From positions 1 to 58,348 of the IMG/VR virus record IMGVR_UViG_3300044641_001300: a DNA stretch of 58,348 nt; one strand, written 5' to 3'. A program made the position numbers and the translations under genes. The notes under the pieces are model-generated. The model ran no database searches and had not been told where the DNA came from. It worked only from the letters and a program-made list of their open reading frames with translations. This document shows positions 23,028-57,189 of the stretch, one piece after another; position 1 is the stretch's first letter; every line of letters starts with the position of its first letter. The stretch comes from a virus. Its lineage: Duplodnaviria; Caudoviricetes.

Positions 23028-23861
23028 TTAGGCACCCTTCTCGGATAGGTATTGGCTATAAAGGTCAGGGTTTTTTGAAGCAACATCGGCAATGGCTTGT
23101 GCCATTGACTTTGATACACCCTCATCAACGGCAGACTTAGCAAGCGCAGTCATGCGCTCATAAGCATTGCCTGACTTGAAGTCCGCAGACTTGCCGATTT
23201 CTGCAAAAATTGATGCTGATTCAGCCTGAGCATTAACTGAAGAAAGAATTTCTTCAACACTCTTTGCTAGTTCTGAATCTGTCTCAGACAAGCGACGGAG
23301 CGCTGGTCCAACTTTTTCAGCATTGAGATTGAGATTTCCCCAACCCTTTGCCTTCTCTACTGATTGAGCATCAGCACGGGCAATACGCTCTTTACGAAGT
23401 TCAGCGGTTGCTTCCTCTGCTTGCTTTTTCAGGCTTGTAATCATTTTAACAACTGAGCGAGGAGCGGATTTCATATATTCCTCTTCCTCTTTTTCGGAAT
23501 CCATTTTCATGGTTTCTTCTTCAGGCTTCTTTGAGTCCTCGTCCATCGCCATTACAACTTCCTCTTCAGGCTTCATTTCCTTTTCGGCGAGTTTGGCTTC
23601 GAGTTCAGCGATACGGGCTTGCGCCATCGCTAATTCTTCCTCAACGGTTTTTTCAACCTTATCTTCAGTTGCCTCGGTAGTTTTCATATCCTCCATAGTG
23701 GAGTCCTCCTTGGTCAGCGATTTGTCGAGAACCCTCTGAACTTCAGATTCGGATGCTGACTTCATAACAAGCCAACCTTCATGTAAGTGCGCTGGATGGT
23801 CTACGCCACTCGTTTCCTCAATGGCAAGATTCACCATTTTGCGGGTACGGGGTTTTGCCAA
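23028..23861 (-). CDS. Capsid scaffolding protein
   Basis: Acidic coiled coil; N-terminal ETSGVDHPAH motif; upstream of cement and capsid genes. Confidence 0.8.
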   Translation of the reverse strand: MAKPRTRKMVNLAIEETSGVDHPAHLHEGWLVMKSASESEVQRVLDKSLTKEDSTMEDMKTTEATEDKVEKTVEEELAMAQARIAELEAKLAEKEMKPEEEVVMAMDEDSKKPEEETMKMDSEKEEEEYMKSAPRSVVKMITSLKKQAEEATAELRKERIARADAQSVEKAKGWGNLNLNAEKVGPALRRLSETDSELAKSVEEILSSVNAQAESASIFAEIGKSADFKSGNAYERMTALAKSAVDEGVSKSMAQAIADVASKNPDLYSQYLSEKGA

Positions 23862-23967
23862 TTTATGCTCCTAACAAACTAGAGGTAAGTTTTTTTAGCA
23901 TAGGGCTAATAAAACTAACCTCGGGTCTTGACACACGAAGAATACCATAGGTGTAATTCGAGCCTAT

Positions 23968-24234
23968 TTATTGGTTTGCTAAAACTCTCGTCTTAGCCAA
24001 GGCTTCGATTAGGTTTGGTGAAACCCACATTGAGAAGGGGTTTTCGTCAGCCCAAAATCGAGCCAACCTAAAGTGAAAGTCAGTTTGGTCTATTTTTGTC
24101 CAAACAAAAAATGCTTGGGAATCATTAGGTAGGTCTACTTGAATTCCTGCATACCCAGGCGGGGTTGAAACTCGATAAGAAGAAATGCCCATAGATTTAA
24201 GAACTTGCATTGTGTCATCTATAACGCTTGGCAT
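23968..24234 (-). CDS. Hypothetical protein
   Basis: MPSVIDD... start just after the stop of the frameshift extension. Confidence 0.55.
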   Translation of the reverse strand: MPSVIDDTMQVLKSMGISSYRVSTPPGYAGIQVDLPNDSQAFFVWTKIDQTDFHFRLARFWADENPFSMWVSPNLIEALAKTRVLANQ

Positions 24235-24239
24235 AAACC

Positions 24240-24452
24240 TTAATTCTTCTTCCTTGGATAATCCATTGTGTCCATCCATTTTGGGTCATCTGCGTCTAAC
24301 TCTTCGAACTCTTCTTCAGAGTCGTCTTTGTAAGGAACAAAATTTGGCTTTGAATTCTTAGGCTCTGAAGAATCTTCGCCTTCGGAATCATCCTCGCCAT
24401 TGCCTGAACCATGACTTGATTGGTCGTGGTCGCCGTGCTTTTCAAGTATTAC
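24240..24452 (-). CDS. -1 frame extension of 24449-24883 carrying the His tag and an acidic tail
   Basis: VILEKHGDHDQSSHGSGNGEDDSEGEDSSEPKNSKPNFVPYKDDSEEEFEELDADDPKWMDTMDYPRKKN*, entered at CTA-AAA-AAA-AAG-TAA. Confidence 0.8.
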   Translation of the reverse strand, partial: VILEKHGDHDQSSHGSGNGEDDSEGEDSSEPKNSKPNFVPYKDDSEEEFEELDADDPKWMDTMDYPRKKN

Positions 24453-24883
24453 TTTTTTTTTAGCGTTGCAACCTTGTGTCCAACTTTTGTATCTGTTGGC
24501 TTTCCATCACGATAAAGAACGATTAGCGCCGCAGGGTCATCCTCTGTGCCTTCAATTTCAAATGATGAATCAGGAACATTGATTTTTCCTGCGCGTTCAA
24601 TTCTTAAAATTTTACCTTCTGCTGTTCCGCCTGAAGCGTCCCAAGTAACCATATCTCCAACTGAAGCGCTCTTTTGAAACTCTTTTAGTTTGGCTTCTAC
24701 TGCCTTGTTAATCTCGCCACCCATCATACGCATTGCTCGCATAACTGTTGATTTTGCGTAACCACTAAGTCCTTTGAAACCGAACTTGCGAACATCTTCT
24801 TCAATCATCTTAAATTCATCTTCGTCCATACCAGCCAAAGGTCCCTTGCGAAGTTCCGCTAACATTCGTGAATCTTTTTTCAT
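24449..24883 (-). CDS. Protein with C-terminal HVA1/DUF2945-like Tudor domain
   Basis: VGDMV.W..SGG.A.GKI..I...G.I.VP...DDPA.LI...VGHK..TL. Confidence 0.6.
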   Translation of the reverse strand: MKKDSRMLAELRKGPLAGMDEDEFKMIEEDVRKFGFKGLSGYAKSTVMRAMRMMGGEINKAVEAKLKEFQKSASVGDMVTWDASGGTAEGKILRIERAGKINVPDSSFEIEGTEDDPAALIVLYRDGKPTDTKVGHKVATLKKK

Positions 24884-25611
24884 ACAGTCTCTTCCTTCTT
24901 GGGTTTTTTCTTTGACGGGGACATTATTGTATCAACATGAACATCGGACACAGTTGGGTCGTTCTTTTCTAAGTCTATATCAACGAATAAACGCTCGGCT
25001 TTACCACCGATTGAGTAGCCGCGAATCTTTCCGTCAGTAACCATACTCCATGCCCAAGGCTCCCAAATTACACCGAGGAATACGGTGTTGGGTGGGTATG
25101 TGTGTTCTAAATCTTCGCCTTCAGGTGTCTTGATTGGAACTGTTAGAGAATATGGGAAAGCCATAACTTCTACCCATTCTCCAGCAACTACATCTCGATT
25201 ATGTTGTAAACGGATACGGCGGTCATTACTTCGAACATAATCCCAAACCGCTCTTTGTAATTCTTCTGAATCTGTCCACTCTCCGTGAGCATCTTCCATA
25301 TCAGGGATATACATTGCTCCAAGCGTGTAACGCTTTTCGCCTTCGGCTTTCTGTAAGTCAAACTTACCTAAAGCCTTTGTTGCGCTTTCAGTAAAGACAT
25401 CAGGAAAAATCTGTCGGGCAACATCTTCGGTTACCTCTTGGAACTCACCTTCGCCTTGAGTCAAATAGCGCACTACATCAGCGTCGGGATTCTCAACCCA
25501 ACTCTTAGTACGAATATCCCATCTGTCCTCGACCATGGCTGTTTCCCCGCGCTCAAAACGATAAATGTTTATCGCTTGATTGTCTGCGCCTAGTTTTGCA
25601 AAATACCGCAT
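24880..25611 (-). CDS. XkdF-like prohead serine protease with an extra ~80 aa N-terminal domain
   Basis: KAE.EKRY.LG..Y.P..EDAHGE, LQH, W..V.DG.I.GYSIGG motifs; start MRYFAKL after SD GAGAGGAGG. Confidence 0.85.
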   Translation of the reverse strand: MRYFAKLGADNQAINIYRFERGETAMVEDRWDIRTKSWVENPDADVVRYLTQGEGEFQEVTEDVARQIFPDVFTESATKALGKFDLQKAEGEKRYTLGAMYIPDMEDAHGEWTDSEELQRAVWDYVRSNDRRIRLQHNRDVVAGEWVEVMAFPYSLTVPIKTPEGEDLEHTYPPNTVFLGVIWEPWAWSMVTDGKIRGYSIGGKAERLFVDIDLEKNDPTVSDVHVDTIMSPSKKKPKKEETV

Positions 25612-27107
25612 ACGGCTATACCTCCTCTCGTTATTGTCCACATAATATCAACCCCCGTTGATTTAGTCAATCCCGCTTGTTGTGCAGTCTCAAAAGTCTG
25701 TGTTACTAGCGTTCCAAGGGTCAATAGTTTGCCCATGTTGGCTGGACGAGGGATTGCCTTAGCCTTATCAACCATTCTGTCCCAAATGGCTTGGCGCTCT
25801 GTATTGTCTTTAGAAGTACGGTAAGTCTCATAGTCAGTATGTAAATCAACTTCCTTAACTCTATGAGAGTTTGGAGTGTGAAGTTGTAGTTCAACCTTTA
25901 CCCCGTCCTTGCTTATCTTGATATTGGTGCCGTCGTAAGGGTCACCTGCTTGCCAAAAGTTTTTAACCGATTCAACTTTCCAACCAGTTTTTTCTAAAGC
26001 GTCTACTGTCTTTTCAACGCCGTCTGTGTAATTCGCTTCATCAACATTAAGTGTGTAGCGGACACCATCAGAGATTGCTCTAGCCGCCGCTTCTCTATCT
26101 CCGCCGTGGTCTTTCTCGGCATCCGCATCAATCTTGCGAGCAAGAGAATCCGTAGACTTTAATCTTTGTTCAAGAGAACTCTTGCCATCTAGTTCAGCAA
26201 AATCAGCATCAATAGTTTTAGCAATGCCCTCCATCAAACTTGTAATTACTGGTTCTACTGCTTGGGCGTCTCTTCTAAGTCTTTCGGCTTCTTTAACCGC
26301 GGCAGGGCTTCGCTCTGCTGATGCTGGTTTATCAGGTGCCATAGCGGGGCGACCAGTCGAACCCTTATCTTCTCCAGCACTATCTCCGCCGTCCCGATTT
26401 CCATGGTCGGCTTGGTCGTGGTCTCCGTGTTTTTCCATTTCATTTTCATTTCGCTCCACCATTGATTCTGCCCAAGCGAATCCAGCATCTCCGCCCCAAG
26501 CATCCCAAGCAACTCTCCCACCGCTAGGAAAACCTTTTTCCCCACGGCTAAAGCCAAGCGCTGTTTTATCTCCTTGATGTCGAGAGAAAAAAGATTTCAT
26601 TCGCTTTAATGTTTCAATAGAAACACTTTCGCCTCGGGCTAATTGACCCGCTCTTGTTCTTCCAACTCTTGTAAATCCACCGCCAGCAAGTCCAGCATCA
26701 ATCCATTCGATTGCTCTTTGCGCCGCATCCCTTACTGATTGAGGAGGAGCAAAACTATCCTCGGCTTTTGCAACTGATTCAATCCGCATCTGATAGCCAT
26801 TGACGGTAAAGAAAGTTTTAATGTTGCCTACGGTCTCACCCGTGGACTTAATGACTTCTAGGACAGTCTCGGCTGGTAATCCAGCGATTGAGGTTAGGTC
26901 TACATCATCGATTGAATCTATAAGAATCTCGTACTTATCCCAGTCATCCTTTGGGCGTTCCATTTTGCGTCGAGCCATCTCATTGAGAACGGTGTGATGA
27001 ACCTCGATTTCAGCCGAGGAGGGAGACGCTGATTTATGGACATTCGCATGGAGCGCGAGTAGTTCCTCAGCGCTTAGATGAATTAGTTTGGGTGCAATAT
27101 CCGCCAT
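25590..27107 (-). CDS. Multidomain cargo protein with C-terminal RelA/SpoT-like nucleotidyltransferase
   Basis: RLKS.DSL.RKI, D.VRYT, KNFW, Y.G.N, ELQLHT..S synthetase motifs; central SFFSRH...AWDAWGGDAG..WA phage domain; KHGDHDQADHG tag before the synthetase. Confidence 0.8.
   Translation of the reverse strand: MADIAPKLIHLSAEELLALHANVHKSASPSSAEIEVHHTVLNEMARRKMERPKDDWDKYEILIDSIDDVDLTSIAGLPAETVLEVIKSTGETVGNIKTFFTVNGYQMRIESVAKAEDSFAPPQSVRDAAQRAIEWIDAGLAGGGFTRVGRTRAGQLARGESVSIETLKRMKSFFSRHQGDKTALGFSRGEKGFPSGGRVAWDAWGGDAGFAWAESMVERNENEMEKHGDHDQADHGNRDGGDSAGEDKGSTGRPAMAPDKPASAERSPAAVKEAERLRRDAQAVEPVITSLMEGIAKTIDADFAELDGKSSLEQRLKSTDSLARKIDADAEKDHGGDREAAARAISDGVRYTLNVDEANYTDGVEKTVDALEKTGWKVESVKNFWQAGDPYDGTNIKISKDGVKVELQLHTPNSHRVKEVDLHTDYETYRTSKDNTERQAIWDRMVDKAKAIPRPANMGKLLTLGTLVTQTFETAQQAGLTKSTGVDIMWTITRGGIAVCGILQN
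25642..25670 (-). promoter_or_regulatory. SigA-type promoter inside the 3' end of the RelA/SpoT gene
   Basis: TTGACT-17 nt (AAATCAACGGGGGTTGA)-TATTAT. Confidence 0.7.
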
Positions 27108-42788: not shown

Positions 42789-43712
42789 ATGGAACACGCA
42801 ATTTTAGTTCATTCGCCCGAGTATGCGAATTGGGTCTTTGACCCTACGCATCCAACTCAAGGGCGTCGGTTCCTTCATGCCCGTAATCAATTCCTTTTGC
42901 GAGCGCAAGAGCGTCATTTGAATGTGTATGAGATTGAACCTCAGATACCACACACCGATGACCTTCATTTAGTTCACGATATGGAATATGTCTACGATGT
43001 AACCGTTCGCGGGGAATCGGCAGAATGGGATGGACAACGCCACGACTTAGGCGAACTAGCCAAGTTATTCGCTGGCGGGACTTTGACTGCCCTAGATTCT
43101 TTGATTGATTACAAAACTAGATTGGCTGTTCACTTCGCAGGTGCAAAGCATCACGCGATGCGTGACTACTCAAGCGGATTCTGTATCTTCAATGACTTTG
43201 CTATCGCCGCTACCAAGGCGACTGAAGAGTATGACCAGCGCGTAGCCATCTTTGATTGCGATGCTCACCATGGTGACGGTACTGAAATGCTGTTGAAGAA
43301 GAATAAGAATGTTATGACTTATTCAGTTCATGAGTATGGAATTTTTCCAGGCACGGGTTTGATGAGCGATTGGAAACACCGCGCTTACAACTTCCCGCTT
43401 GCATCTAAGTCGGGCGATGAAGCCTTGCTATCTGCTACCGAGGGATTCCTTCAGGCTTGCGATGAATTCAAACCTACAATGATTTTCGTTGCCTGTGGTG
43501 CCGATGCTTTGAAGAATGACCCGCTCTCATCTCTTGAGTTCACCAAAGAGGGTTACTTCGAATCCATGCGGATGATTAGGGAGCAATACTTCGACCATCC
43601 AATTCTCCTAGGCGGAGCAGGTGGTTACCAGCCTGACACGGAAACCCCTGACCTATGGGCGACAGTTGCTCTAGGACTTATGGCGGTTCAAACCGAGGTT
43701 GTAAAACCCTAA
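42789..43712 (+). CDS. Zn-dependent deacetylase (HDAC/AcuC family)
   Basis: HHA....SGFC.FND.AIA, D.DAHHGDGT, S.H, GAD....DPL, GGY. Confidence 0.93.
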   Translation: MEHAILVHSPEYANWVFDPTHPTQGRRFLHARNQFLLRAQERHLNVYEIEPQIPHTDDLHLVHDMEYVYDVTVRGESAEWDGQRHDLGELAKLFAGGTLTALDSLIDYKTRLAVHFAGAKHHAMRDYSSGFCIFNDFAIAATKATEEYDQRVAIFDCDAHHGDGTEMLLKKNKNVMTYSVHEYGIFPGTGLMSDWKHRAYNFPLASKSGDEALLSATEGFLQACDEFKPTMIFVACGADALKNDPLSSLEFTKEGYFESMRMIREQYFDHPILLGGAGGYQPDTETPDLWATVALGLMAVQTEVVKP

Positions 43713-43729
43713 CCGTTACGATTGGTGCC

Positions 43730-44452
43730 ATGAACCCACCAAAAAAACTGCTGACACAAAACAGCGAGTTAAAGCCTGACGGAATCTTTAACTGGACTCT
43801 ACCTGCCTTTGCAATAAAATTAACAGATGGAAGTAATTTTAATGTTTGTCCGCAAGCAGGAGCCTGTGCAAGTTTTTGTTATGCAAGAAATGGGACTTAT
43901 CTGTTTAGCAATGTGCGCTCGCGCCATGTCTTAAATCTTGAATATGTAATGCACTATCCCGAGCAATGGTTTGAGCAGATGTTGGCTGAGGTGCAAAAGC
44001 CGAAGATGATTGGCAAGCACATTCGAATTCACGATGCTGGAGATTTCTTCTCTGAAGATTATCTCAACCTATGGTTGAAGATTGCTAGGGCAACTCCCGA
44101 TGTAACTTTCTATTGCTACACAAAGGAAGTCGCTCTATTCAAGAAAGTCGTTGAGCCTGATTGCCCTGCGAACTTTCGTTACCTTTACAGTATGGGCGGA
44201 AAGCAAGACCATCTGATTAACAAAGAGACTGACCGCCATGCTGAAGTCTTTCCCGATGATGTCGCTATTTTGGATGCAGGTTATATGAGCCAAGATGCAA
44301 GCGACTTATTGGCTATTACTTTACCGAGTAACAAAATCGGCATACCCGCTAATAACATCCGCCACTTTAATAAAAAATTGGCTGGTCGTACCTTCGGCGA
44401 TGTGCAAGATGAGATTGACCAAAAGCGCAAAGTAAAACTAAGCGGGGCATAA
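43730..44452 (+). CDS. Gp88-like (radical-SAM-related) protein
   Basis: CP.AG.C...CYA, RIHDAGDF, Y.YTK. Confidence 0.75.
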   Translation: MNPPKKLLTQNSELKPDGIFNWTLPAFAIKLTDGSNFNVCPQAGACASFCYARNGTYLFSNVRSRHVLNLEYVMHYPEQWFEQMLAEVQKPKMIGKHIRIHDAGDFFSEDYLNLWLKIARATPDVTFYCYTKEVALFKKVVEPDCPANFRYLYSMGGKQDHLINKETDRHAEVFPDDVAILDAGYMSQDASDLLAITLPSNKIGIPANNIRHFNKKLAGRTFGDVQDEIDQKRKVKLSGA

Positions 44453-51607: not shown

Positions 51608-52795
51608 TTATTCTACCTCGGTTGTACAAGCCTCAATAGGCATAAATAATAACTCAGCGATGTCTTTCCATCCATTGATTGTGTTCGCCCATTCATTCAG
51701 GTCCTCGCTATGAACTCTCATATTGTGGTCACCAACTCGAATGGTGGTGCGACCCACAGGAATATGTCCAGGCTTTGATTTTCCCCCTGCAAGAATCTCT
51801 GCCACTTCTTCAGAACTAAAGCCTGTTCCCCGCAAGCCCGTACTCATAAGAAGTTTGTTCAACTCCTGTGGGTCGTATGTTGCCAAGTCAGAGGTTCGAT
51901 TATCGACGATGAGGATTTTGATTTCCTCTATCTCATCAACATCAACCCAATGAACGGCAATTTTCTCCCACCCTAACTGAAGCGCACCTTGATAGGTGTG
52001 ATTGCCTGAAAGAATATGTTTGGTTGCTTTATTAACTACGATAGGTCGGTACTGCCCCATGTGTGTAAGGGACTCAATGATTGCACCGATGTCGCCTTCT
52101 CTTGGGTTAAGCGGATGAATCTTAATCTCGTTTATAGGAACTGTCTCTATATCCGTGGCACTAACTTCAGAGCGCTCGCCGCTTGGCTCAGCCTCAACTG
52201 GTTGCCGCTCGGGTAATCCCAATCGGGTTTTGATTGCCTTGAGGGCTTTTTGTTTCGTCGGGAACTCTTCGTATAACTGCTCACGCCAAGCCTTGTAGAC
52301 CGTACTCTCAACCGTAAACCGCCAAGCGCTAACCTTTACTTCAGGGTCGCTAGGTAAAGGCTTAGAACCGCCCACAGGGTCTTTGTCTTGACCATTCATC
52401 AGCCTATCTAAAGTCTCAACCTCGGCTTGAGTGAAGCCCGTCCCCTCGAGTTCAGGAAGTGTGGTCAATAGACTCTTGAGTAACGGTTCGTTATATGTTG
52501 CAAGGTCGGTCAAACGATTATCAGCCAACACAATCCTGCGAGCGCTCTCTTCATCTACTTCGATATAAGTTATCTTGATTTTTTTCCAGCCGAGTTTCTT
52601 TGCCGCTTTGTAAGTGTGGTTACCAGCCAAGATGAAGTTCGTGCCGTACTGAACAACAATCGGGCGATATTGACCATGGGCTTTGAGTGACTGAGCAATC
52701 GCTTCGATGTCACCCCTGCGTGGATTCGTCGGGTAACTCTCAAGCGTGTTGAGTGCTACTGAAGCAACTTGTCCAACCTTTATGTTTGCTTTCAC
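51608..52795 (-). CDS. Protein with two tandem ParB/Srx-like N-terminal domains
   Basis: NPR.GD..AI..SL...GQYRPIVV...IL.GNHTY.....LGW occurs twice. Confidence 0.88.
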   Translation of the reverse strand: MKANIKVGQVASVALNTLESYPTNPRRGDIEAIAQSLKAHGQYRPIVVQYGTNFILAGNHTYKAAKKLGWKKIKITYIEVDEESARRIVLADNRLTDLATYNEPLLKSLLTTLPELEGTGFTQAEVETLDRLMNGQDKDPVGGSKPLPSDPEVKVSAWRFTVESTVYKAWREQLYEEFPTKQKALKAIKTRLGLPERQPVEAEPSGERSEVSATDIETVPINEIKIHPLNPREGDIGAIIESLTHMGQYRPIVVNKATKHILSGNHTYQGALQLGWEKIAVHWVDVDEIEEIKILIVDNRTSDLATYDPQELNKLLMSTGLRGTGFSSEEVAEILAGGKSKPGHIPVGRTTIRVGDHNMRVHSEDLNEWANTINGWKDIAELLFMPIEACTTEVE

Positions 52796-55289: not shown

Positions 55290-55663
55290 AAATTACCTCC
55301 ACAATGCGGACAACATTTTTTGCGTCCTTGTTTTTCAATGACCCGACCTTGTACACAAAACACATCCACATAAACCTTACAGCCGTTACGAGTTTCTTTT
55401 AACCTCGCTATGCGTCCAGTTTTATGAAGAACGGACAATACACCCGAAGCCGTTCCATGGTGAAGTCCAGTTATCTCTGAGAACTCTTTCCAAGTTAAAC
55501 CTGCCATCTCTCGTTGAGATAGAAGGTTCAAGGCTTGCGCTTGACGCAGGGCGGTCTTACCTGACCTATCCGCGTGAAGCGCTCGCTCCCTCGAAGTATC
55601 TGTTCCGCTGTGTCCCGAAGTTTGGTTATACGGTAACTCGGGCTGGTTCAATAATGCTGACAT
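55286..55663 (-). CDS. Winged-HTH DNA-binding protein
   Basis: GLTW.E.....GLHHG.ASG.LS.LH; C-terminal CPHCG. Confidence 0.65.
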   Translation of the reverse strand: MSALLNQPELPYNQTSGHSGTDTSRERALHADRSGKTALRQAQALNLLSQREMAGLTWKEFSEITGLHHGTASGVLSVLHKTGRIARLKETRNGCKVYVDVFCVQGRVIEKQGRKKCCPHCGGNL

Positions 55664-56297
55664 CTTCAATTTCCTCTTCCAACTTTGTTGGTGTCAATTT
55701 AGTTTGTTGCTCTTTGAACTTGGCACGGAATTGGTCGAGAAGCCCAACTGGGTAAGAGTCCTTGTTCGCAGTTATGTACTGACCGACTTCAGATAAAGAT
55801 TCAATCGTGGTCGATTGGTTAATTTTTGCTATGACTGCCTCGGGCGCTAAAACATCTTCAGCGCTTGAGCGTTCATAGGAATGTGCATCAGGGTCCACCT
55901 CATCGGTTGGAAGTGATAGCGATTGCAGTAGCGCAGTACGGAAAGCAACTGACATGGCTTTGGCTGTTGCCTTATCGCCTGAGTCCATCGCTTCGCCAAC
56001 TACCGTCGCCTTAATTGCATCACCGTTTGCTCCGATGAATGTGTAAGTCACTTTGACTCTGACATGACCCATAGCAGTTCGGTTCCGTCCAATCTCAACT
56101 GTTTGATAGTCATACTCTTCAACTGAAGGCACGATGACTACACCAAACTTTTGAAGTGCTGGCGATACAGCATTGACAACAGAATCAATTCCTCGGAAGT
56201 TAAATCCTTGGGCTGTGTTCTTGTCCTTCTTTGCGATTGCTCCAACTGCTTTCATGATTTCATTTAGCGCTTGCGCTATTGGTAATTTGTTTTCCAT
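55626..56297 (-). CDS. ERF-family single-strand annealing protein
   Basis: N..QG.NFRGID.V, GEA.DSGDKA..KAMS.A.R..L. Confidence 0.9.
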   Translation of the reverse strand: MENKLPIAQALNEIMKAVGAIAKKDKNTAQGFNFRGIDSVVNAVSPALQKFGVVIVPSVEEYDYQTVEIGRNRTAMGHVRVKVTYTFIGANGDAIKATVVGEAMDSGDKATAKAMSVAFRTALLQSLSLPTDEVDPDAHSYERSSAEDVLAPEAVIAKINQSTTIESLSEVGQYITANKDSYPVGLLDQFRAKFKEQQTKLTPTKLEEEIEDVSIIEPARVTV

Positions 56298-56308: not shown

Positions 56309-56851
56309 CTATTCTGCTATTACGAACGAGACTGAAACTTCAGCGGCTACAACTTTGACTGAAGGAACAATTTCGCCTTGGGTTGATATTACTTTATCTT
56401 CGGACTGATTCAAAGCACCTAGGGCTTTTTTATCGATTTCTTTTTTGATTCGAACCAACTCAGGGGCATTTGTCTCAGCCCACTCGAGGAACTTAGATTC
56501 ATCCTCAATATCGAACTTGACTCGACCTGAGATAGTTTTGATGGTGCCGTGGGGCAGGACTATGCTTTTACGGTCTTTAGAGCGCTCTGTAAGGGCGTAA
56601 GGGCGTAGGTTCGCCTCAAACCATTCAGCGTCTCTTTCGAGGTCTGTATTGACCTTCTCTAGCCATTCTGCGACCCTTTTGATTTCTCGGTCAAAGATGG
56701 CTTTGTTATCTGATTGCTTGCGTCGAATAGAGGCAAGTTTTCTCATTGCCCAATCAGCCTTTGAATCGTCATCTACGACGAATGGCTCACGGGCTGGTTC
56801 CTCAATGATTTCAAAATCATCAACTGGTCTTACTGATATTGCGTTGTCCAT
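56309..56851 (-). CDS. Mu Gam-like DNA end-protection protein
   Basis: F.V.D...ADWA.RK, KS..LP.G.I, K.E.DK.AL, GE.VP.V; start MDNAIS. Confidence 0.8.
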   Translation of the reverse strand: MDNAISVRPVDDFEIIEEPAREPFVVDDDSKADWAMRKLASIRRKQSDNKAIFDREIKRVAEWLEKVNTDLERDAEWFEANLRPYALTERSKDRKSIVLPHGTIKTISGRVKFDIEDESKFLEWAETNAPELVRIKKEIDKKALGALNQSEDKVISTQGEIVPSVKVVAAEVSVSFVIAE

Positions 56852-56907
56852 GCGGACTCCTCTCGTTATAGGAGAGGGTACTAAACGGGGGTTTAGTTTG
56901 TCAAGCC

Positions 56908-57189
56908 CTACAACCCGATAACTTGTCCAACATACATTGAGGCACCGACAACCGTACAGATGAAGAGCGCTCCGACGGTACGAATGACCCATTCGGAGCG
57001 ACTCTCCATCTTTTCAAGACGGTCTGTAATGTGTTCCATGGCTTGCGTGACTCTTTCAGAATCAGAGTCGTAAACATCTTTGCGAAGATAGGTTTGGCTA
57101 ACATTTAGATTCATCTGCTTGACTTCCATAGTTAGGTCATCAAGCCGACGCATAATCTCTCCTAAACTTGGCTTTACCTCTTCGCTCAT
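56908..57189 (-). CDS. Coiled-coil membrane protein of the lysis cassette
   Basis: C-terminal TM; follows the endolysin. Confidence 0.6.
   Translation of the reverse strand: MSEEVKPSLGEIMRRLDDLTMEVKQMNLNVSQTYLRKDVYDSDSERVTQAMEHITDRLEKMESRSEWVIRTVGALFICTVVGASMYVGQVIGL

Follow-up and report, generated by a model that had tools for sequence, protein, structure and literature searches.

Does the gene for a small Tudor-like protein in a phage head module end at its stop codon, or does the run of nine adenines that closes it lead some of its products into a second, acidic domain? The question is raised by a complete single-contig phage-like genome from an uncultured lake phage (IMG/VR record IMGVR_UViG_3300044641_001300), whose 58,348 bases constitute the window analysed here. 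A sequence-only reading of this DNA had proposed that a hidden -1 frameshift appends a histidine-rich tag and an acidic tail to the protein, yielding tagged and untagged forms. We judge, with a probability of roughly 85%, that the A9 run closing the gene is a programmed recoding site that would give tail-less and tailed forms, a reading supported by conservation of the slip site, by natural in-frame fusions of the two parts, by selection acting in the -1 frame and by a start codon that is never conserved.

The zero-frame gene lies on the minus strand (24449..24883, including the TAA stop at 24449-24451) and encodes a 144-residue protein composed of a helical N-terminal domain (N-domain) and a Tudor/SH3-like barrel. 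Its 3' end reads GCA ACG CTA AAA AAA AAG TAA and contains the A9 run (24453..24461, minus strand; T9 on the plus strand), with A_AAA_AAG at 24452-24458 and A_AAA_AAA one codon upstream, both in phase with the zero frame. The run is the only homopolymer of at least nine bases in the genome, the next longest being three T8 runs. Past it the -1 frame continues as KKK-VILEKHGDHDQSSHGSGNGEDDSEGEDSSEPKNSKPNFVPYKDDSEEEFEELDADDPKWMDTMDYPRKKN, a 70-codon extension beginning with GTA at 24452 and followed by a TAA stop at 24240-24242 (24240..24452, minus strand), which opens with VILE-KHGDHDQSSHG and then passes into an acidic stretch. Upstream of the run the -1 frame is open for only 19 codons, and from the previous stop until a WMD near its end it contains no ATG, GTG or TTG. 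The next gene begins at an ATG at 24234, 5 nucleotides past the stop of the tail. This start was set from homologues, all of 88-90 residues, giving a gene product of 88 residues; the 103 residues counted from an ATG at 24279 in the mechanical list of open reading frames are an over-extension. On the minus strand the sequence-only description of the locus stands in each of its parts: the open reading frame with its CTA-AAA-AAA-AAG-TAA end, the in-phase slippery heptamer, the 70-codon continuation of tag and acidic peptide, the absence of a start codon before the tag and the closure of the frame just ahead of the next gene.

The slip site is widely conserved. A protein search with the 144-residue sequence returned 252 relatives at E <= 0.001, and the best 120 of these 252 fall into two length classes, 89 of 119-146 residues and 31 of 205-222 residues. 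At the DNA level 80 IMG/VR loci were surveyed together with the window; four loci are truncated by contig ends, leaving 77 sites (76 IMG/VR loci and the window), 64 of them with distinct 320-nucleotide segments. A -1 shift at the A-run is required to enter the tail at 65 of the 77 sites, comprising 46 A9G (window included), 11 A9T, 2 A10T and 6 A7G runs, so that the run is A9 or A10 in 59 and A7 in the remaining 6. The A9G sites follow the form CTA/TTA-A8-G-TAR, and the zero frame ends as KKN* at A9T, KKK* at A10T and KKA* at A7-GCC-TAA sites. At all 65 the zero-frame stop lies no more than one codon past the run, and in the alignment the codons flanking the run vary synonymously while the run itself is unchanged. 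The slippery run and the two frames that it joins, whose conservation in relatives the sequence-only reading had proposed as a check, are both kept at these sites.

Homopolymers are error-prone, and an assembly or sequencing indel would reduce the locus to a genome with A10 and a single 214-residue open reading frame, such as the in-frame A10 seen in three relatives; two others have A8. However, the -1 relation is held across A9G, A9T, A10T and A7G runs with differing neighbouring bases, a pattern that random homopolymer error would not yield, and in five loci a frameshift occurs at another boundary altogether (see below). Contigs from independent assemblies also speak to this point. Among 20 public sequencing runs listed, all as contigs, 8 contain half or more of the words sampled from the window; four runs were compared in detail, and six RNA-library runs carry part of the window, again as contigs. 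One contig of DNA run X2 (24150-24523) and one of DNA run X3 (24250-24757) have 0 differences from the window and span the A-run without an indel, as does a second, diverged X2 contig. A contig of RNA-library run X16 (24269-24537, 19 differences) spans the run as A9, and X15 covers 24683-24943 only, with the slip site outside. No indel rows appear for the compared contigs, which drop rare variants and cannot reveal minority messenger RNA lengths. The count of nine adenines is therefore upheld by contigs of two DNA runs and one RNA-library run, and an indel artefact can hardly be credited.

Purifying selection on the tail is confined to the -1 frame. Codons were aligned for 49 unique tails, drawn from those 64 '-1' loci whose tails are complete. 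In the -1 frame the proportions of synonymous (pS) and nonsynonymous (pN) differences are 0.65 and 0.16, a pN/pS ratio of 0.25; reading this DNA in the two remaining frames yields ratios of 1.44 and 1.14. Entropy by codon position in the -1 frame is 31.6, 29.6 and 71.9. Eighteen columns are invariant across 33 aligned tails, down to 51% identity, and three blocks are conserved: KH-G.HDQ..HG, DDSEGEDSSEPKN and DDSEGEF…DDPKWMD[TD]MD. In the window the first block is the KHGDHDQSSHG motif that opens the extension (24408..24440, minus strand), in which K, H, H, D, Q and H are invariant in the 33 tails; at the other end lies the conserved C-terminal block MDTMDYPRKK (24246..24275, minus strand), preceded by DDPKW. 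Strong selection of this kind, and invariant columns at such divergence, stand against a decaying gene fusion in which the frameshift would be a tolerated lesion and the tail no longer made; nothing specific speaks for decay, and we give it next to no weight. The extension has an isoelectric point of 4.2, with 22 aspartate or glutamate and 8 lysine or arginine residues among its 70, and is predicted to be disordered: in an AlphaFold2 (AF2) model of an in-frame relative (P0068) the predicted local distance difference test score (pLDDT) is below 50 for residues 149-196 and 201-213.

The tail might instead be translated alone, as a separate 8-kDa acidic peptide, with ribosomes using a non-canonical start or re-initiating past the TAA; terminating ribosomes would be well placed for this since the zero-frame stop adjoins the open -1 frame. 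Against such a peptide, ATG, GTG and TTG are all absent, no near-cognate codon is conserved and the first codons vary among loci (GTA ATA CTT, GTA GTT CTT, GTA GAG ATT, TTA GAT ATT, ATA GAT ATT, AGC CTA AGC). No Shine-Dalgarno sequence precedes the frame, the A-run occupying this position, and relatives encode both parts as one continuous protein. A free-standing peptide is accordingly very improbable.

These continuous relatives indicate that the long product is a real protein. Of the 31 long relatives 24 were retrieved, and six of these are in-frame fusions of the Tudor protein, the KHGDHDQ motif and the acidic tail (P0042, P0059, P0068, P0076, P0083, P0120); nine others have an additional motif-bearing segment inserted between N-domain and barrel and still end in ...STLKKK or ...NKI/RKI. 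In the DNA survey the Tudor/tail junction is in frame at 10 of the 77 sites, three with A10 and seven without a run. In five of the seven run-less loci (L075, L076, L077, L079, L080) the slip site is found instead at the N-domain/barrel boundary, as GAA-AAA-AAA-AAT-TAG (A10T) or CTA-AAA-AAA-AAC-TAG (A9C), and the Tudor/tail junction is an ordinary in-frame one. Here the zero frame halts at …EKKN*, and the -1 frame runs as KKKLE[IL]SKAISVGD… through barrel, motif and tail. The tails of these five loci resemble those of different clades with the site at the second boundary and the moved runs are of two kinds, suggesting that relocation of the slip site either arose more than once or is borne by recombination. 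One clade (L024-L039 and others) has a second A9, in frame, at the N-domain/barrel boundary, about 235 nucleotides ahead of the junction run; slippage there would yield the N-domain alone. In L023 this position is occupied by A11.

A further lineage (L201, L202) has no slip site and carries two Tudor genes after the protease. The first encodes a tail-less protein of 141 residues ending in STLNKI*, and the second a 322-residue paralogue comprising N-domain, barrel, DUF5824 and an in-frame motif and tail, with the 88-residue gene next. Distant relatives (L068, L069, L078; 51-55% identity) and P0083 consist of one continuous long open reading frame. Most family members nevertheless appear to be arranged so that the shorter form would be made as well, and both isoforms are probably made and needed. 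The long form might alternatively be supplied by variation of the tract in the DNA itself, with A9 and A10 subpopulations in the manner of phase variation. Long A tracts mutate fast, and in-frame A10 relatives are found close to A9 relatives (L017, L023; P0059 and P0068 versus P0038 and P0073). A mixed population does not, however, serve a structural or assembly protein that is needed in two forms per infected cell, the two-gene lineage suggests that both forms are wanted together, and no indel variants are seen among the compared contigs, though contigs drop rare variants. We regard tract variation as an unlikely source of the long form.

Several observations weigh against programmed recoding. 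In nine of the 24 retrieved long relatives CAA or CAG replaces the zero-frame stop and the zero frame stays open; a stop adjoining the A-run is not universal among long database proteins. The in-frame A10 at three loci (L017, L023, L078) and the A8 at two (L065, L070), which calls for a +1 shift, reflect either real length variation or homopolymer errors, and P0083 and the distant relatives manage without any slip site. No stimulatory structure was found: RNAalifold on 41 distinct sequences gave a consensus energy of -0.09 kcal/mol and found 0 compensatory pairs, the fold of the window sequence does not surpass that of its shuffles (single-sequence z-score -0.65) and a search of Rfam with 23800-25000 returned no match. 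An AAGG upstream of the run is not conserved and corresponds to a variable Lys-Val codon pair. Finally, production of the long form is argued from comparison and from contigs. The zero-frame read-through proteins (P0044, P0047, P0048, P0056, P0058, P0061, P0077, P0082, P0099) are 211-222 residues long and, as gene-called, contain about 75 out-of-frame residues, the real tail staying in the -1 frame; the L065 locus forms one end of a contig of 58,158 bases.

Under programmed recoding most decoding would end at the TAA, giving a basic protein of 144 residues (15.8 kDa, isoelectric point 9.0), and a minority of products would move to the -1 frame, giving a 214-residue protein ...TLKKK-VILEKHGDHDQSSHG... 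with the 70-residue acidic disordered tail. RNA polymerase may add one A on the A9/T9 tract, or the ribosome may slip by -1 on A_AAA_AAA/A_AAA_AAG; the two routes would converge on one protein, ...TLKKK-VILEK.... Across the 70 '-1' sites of the family (65 junction and 5 moved), the run is at least nine long at 64 and A7 at 6, the final AAG is in phase at 46 and A_AAA_AAA is in phase at all 70. The Leu codon before the run always has A as its third base (CTA or TTA), though the classic heptamer does not need an A there. Bacterial RNA polymerase slips efficiently on nine A or T, and Thermus dnaX uses such slippage, according to the part of the review by Atkins et al. drawn on here (PMC5009743). 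Taken with the sharing of run length rather than of AAG, this leans towards transcriptional slippage, in which one added A would restore the frame, and the odds that it is the main route seem about even to us. Ribosomal -1 frameshifting is kept alive by the A7 clade and by the in-phase A_AAA_AAG, named a highly efficient -1 motif in the part of PMC4066793 used here; that it predominates is a real but lesser possibility, and what remains goes to both routes acting or to an undecidable case. A stop codon beside the slip site would give ribosomal slippage extra time. Stimulatory elements are common but not obligatory at programmed -1 ribosomal frameshift sites, and as none was found here ribosomal efficiency may be low. 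The ten large open reading frames scanned include no phage RNA polymerase, so that the slipping enzyme would be that of the host.

What the tail might do is suggested by its two ends. The last residues of the head maturation protease encoded immediately upstream, …NDPTVSDVHVDTIMSPSKKKPKKEETV, and the last 15 residues of the tail, …DDPKWMDTMDYPRKKN, each carry one copy of the pattern [VMIL]DT[IMLV]..P.KK, which has exactly two matches in the six-frame translation of the genome and 0 in 200 codon-shuffled genomes. The protease C-terminus (24907-24936) and the tail C-terminus (24246-24275), both on the minus strand, have DP...[VM]DT[IM]..P.KK in common, and each end is conserved throughout the clades examined. 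The pattern was drawn up post hoc, after both sequences had been seen, and this too tells against reading much into it; it is a lead and not a test. C-terminal peptides of prohead proteases and scaffolds (the HK97 protease; lambda C/Nu3) dock these proteins inside the procapsid. The suggestion in the sequence-only reading that the tail is a DNA mimic or protein decoy found no support here, and the likeness to the protease C-terminus would point rather to a docking or assembly tail. From this likeness and the header motif opening the tail we infer, by analogy, that the tail may be an assembly, docking or processing module. The frameshift would then equip part of the Tudor protein pool with a tail suited to procapsid docking and protease processing, and only this set fraction would be tied into the procapsid interior.

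The header, initially described as a His tag, is a real repeated motif. The window contains five copies of H.HDQ..H, all within the head module and on the minus strand. In addition to that of the tail, one lies in the middle of a 505-residue head-morphogenesis protein (25590..27107; copy at 26403..26429), two in a 616-residue protein (27308..29158; copies at 28475..28501, residue ~230, and 29066..29092, residue ~33) and one near the N-terminus of a 305-residue ADP-ribosyltransferase-like protein encoded directly after MuF (29155..30072; copy at 29998..30024). The motif also occurs in many other phage head proteins. A scan of IMG/VR with back-translated KHGDHDQ gave at least 120 stretches with 118 new loci (L083-L200), and the matches listed contain at least 232 motif copies in at least 191 unique contexts. 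Among the 191 contexts listed, start-less Tudor tails account for 29, and in 7 more this tail is joined in frame to a longer open reading frame; 55 are found no further than 60 residues from a frame start, 96 are internal and 4 are chance-like; the consensus among the matches listed is ..K.V[LEK]-KHGDHDQS[SDE]HG[NSA]WA.G.

A profile search with the tail recovered 159 cluster representatives at E <= 0.001. In this search the whole tail was found only at the C-terminus of the Tudor protein family, with varied middle domains, and the motif part alone recurs as 3-20 repeats in proteins of up to 7059 residues (P0129, P0134, P0135 and P0138 among the motif-bearing proteins). The multi-motif proteins that were scanned are chains of ADP-ribosyltransferase or NUDIX modules with the motif before each, as in proteins of 1880 and 2201 residues, where it precedes each ADP-ribosyltransferase module. 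This distribution suggests that the tail starts with a junction or header signal of head-cargo modules, which may be a cleavage, a metal or a docking site. No paper on the motif peptide was found in the literature covered, which excludes supplementary tables, and none on transcriptional slippage or frameshifting with phage scaffolding proteins or on A AAA AAG frameshifting in phage heads; likewise the part of Iyer et al. (2017; PMC5512222) that was covered, supplements excluded, mentions neither the motif nor Tudor domains nor frameshifting.

A broader proposal, which we advance only tentatively and which may well claim too much, would join these elements. Poly-A slip sites would act as movable domain-boundary valves of a head-assembly protein, placed at either boundary or replaced by gene duplication, that dose an undescribed address module. 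The KHGDHDQ..HGxW header would mark and separate head-packaged cargo modules in hundreds of uncultured phages (as many as 20 times in a single protein of 7059 residues), probably as a site of cutting or recognition by the head protease. The C-terminal peptide of the tail would mimic the procapsid-docking end of the protease, and the frameshift would set the copy number of an internal head protein.

The window protein matches Pfam Hva1_TUDOR (PF11160) marginally, at 24.3 bits versus a threshold of 24.1, and relatives score 27.1-37.5 bits. The AF2 model of P0068 comprises a helical N-domain (residues 2-73) and a small beta-barrel (79-145), both at pLDDT ~80-90; a Foldseek search of the long-form model against the PDB gave weak small-barrel matches only, none at E <= 0.001. 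A blastn search of the region against the phage collection gave no match, neither the Tudor protein nor the tail nor the 88-residue protein belongs to a PHROGs family, and tblastn with the 144-residue protein found two cultured phages only, with the barrel alone aligning. The barrel of cultured phages belongs to head-internal fusion proteins. In Limnohabitans phage DC31 an acidic coiled-coil and scaffold-like region continues in frame from the barrel, and this Tudor-scaffold fusion has no significant similarity to the 277-residue scaffold-like protein of the window. In Roseobacter phage CRP-811 the barrel lies inside an 816-residue polyprotein, between a domain like the 505-residue protein (48% identity to the window protein, E 2e-27) and a protease-scaffold-capsid part. 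This 816-residue open reading frame (L081 4559-7009), annotated 'major capsid protein', is a polyprotein with an acidic linker before the Tudor-like barrel.

On the minus strand of the window the gene order begins with a Mu-type portal, MuF, the 305-residue ADP-ribosyltransferase-like protein, the 616-residue protein and the 505-residue head-morphogenesis protein, and continues with an XkdF-type head maturation protease (Peptidase_S78_2; 24880..25641, with VDTIMSPSKK at its C-terminus, 24907-24936), the Tudor gene, the 88-residue protein, a 277-residue acidic protein, a 131-residue phrog_673 protein and a gpE-type major capsid protein. The highly conserved 88-residue gene downstream (23968..24234, minus strand) has a predicted alpha-4 beta-alpha fold (AF2 pLDDT 83), no Foldseek match in the PDB at E <= 0.001 and no Pfam or PHROG match; in the ESM Atlas it is found in its own-like viral cluster only. 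This neighbour was considered as a secretion-chaperone-like partner of the tail and rejected, there being no fold support. Elsewhere in the genome are genes for a histone-deacetylase-family protein (42789-43712, plus strand; E 2e-57), a GP88 family protein (43655-44452, plus strand), ParB_N (51608-52795, minus strand), an ERF recombinase (55626-56297, minus strand) and a Mu Gam-like protein (56309-56992, minus strand).

Gene callers split or truncate the Tudor/tail gene, and databases hold three artefactual versions of it: the 144-residue form, out-of-frame read-throughs and orphan tail open reading frames. Recognition of the slip site leads to the correct long product for a widespread freshwater phage group. 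The family is also a natural experiment in which the need for tail-less and tailed protein would be met by a slip site at either boundary or by two genes, and with three alternative solutions in one family the stoichiometry hypothesis becomes directly testable. The header motif is very common in phage head cargo, and if it acts in processing or packaging, this could account for the loading and separation of multi-enzyme cargo.

Recoding of this kind is known; the gene family in which it occurs here, and the tail module, we did not find described. The header recalls phage-type polyvalent and MuF-linked cargo, as presented in the part of Iyer et al. (2017; PMC5512222) covered here. In the window the header stands before the ADP-ribosyltransferase-like and other post-MuF modules, and in the giant proteins with many ADP-ribosyltransferases KHGDHDQ..HG separates up to 20 modules. 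Polyvalent proteins combine several effector or enzymatic domains in one chain and are usually joined to MuF or portal. The Tudor protein has neither such a fusion nor such domains: across its 144- and 214-residue forms it comprises one helical domain, one barrel and a putatively disordered tail, and the header motif alone links it to polyvalent proteins. The slip site shares with that of Escherichia coli dnaX the same A_AAA_AAG heptamer in the same zero-frame phase. E. coli dnaX also has an upstream Shine-Dalgarno-like element and a downstream stem-loop, whereas neither stimulatory element is conserved in the window family, where moreover 11 A9T, 2 A10T and 6 A7G relatives are without the final G in phase. 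Thermus thermophilus dnaX (tau/gamma) is described in the portion of PMC5009743 used here as having a nine-base A/T tract in its coding region, two forms and no RNA structure. Runs of at least nine at 64 of the 70 '-1' sites fit this case, and Shigella mxiE is another slippage site of the A/T-run kind; in Thermus, a different gene with a different role, the slipped messenger RNAs give shorter forms, whereas the slipped product here would be the longer one.

Among phage structural genes a parallel in outcome is the tail assembly chaperone frameshift of lambda (G/GT), conserved across double-stranded DNA phages, in which an abundant short product is accompanied by a rare one extended at its C-terminus; the GT extension binds a structural partner and the G/GT ratio matters (PMC5009743, in the portion used). 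The window locus differs from G/GT in belonging to the head rather than the tail module, in having no sequence relation to it and in its slippery sequence. The phage T7 10A/10B pair is a head component made in normal and frameshift-extended forms. The major head protein of Lactobacillus phage A2 is likewise a head component with normal and -1 frameshift-extended forms, according to the same portion of PMC5009743. In contrast to these two major capsid proteins, the candidate recoded gene of the window specifies a small Tudor-like protein and is encoded between the protease and a scaffold-like gene.

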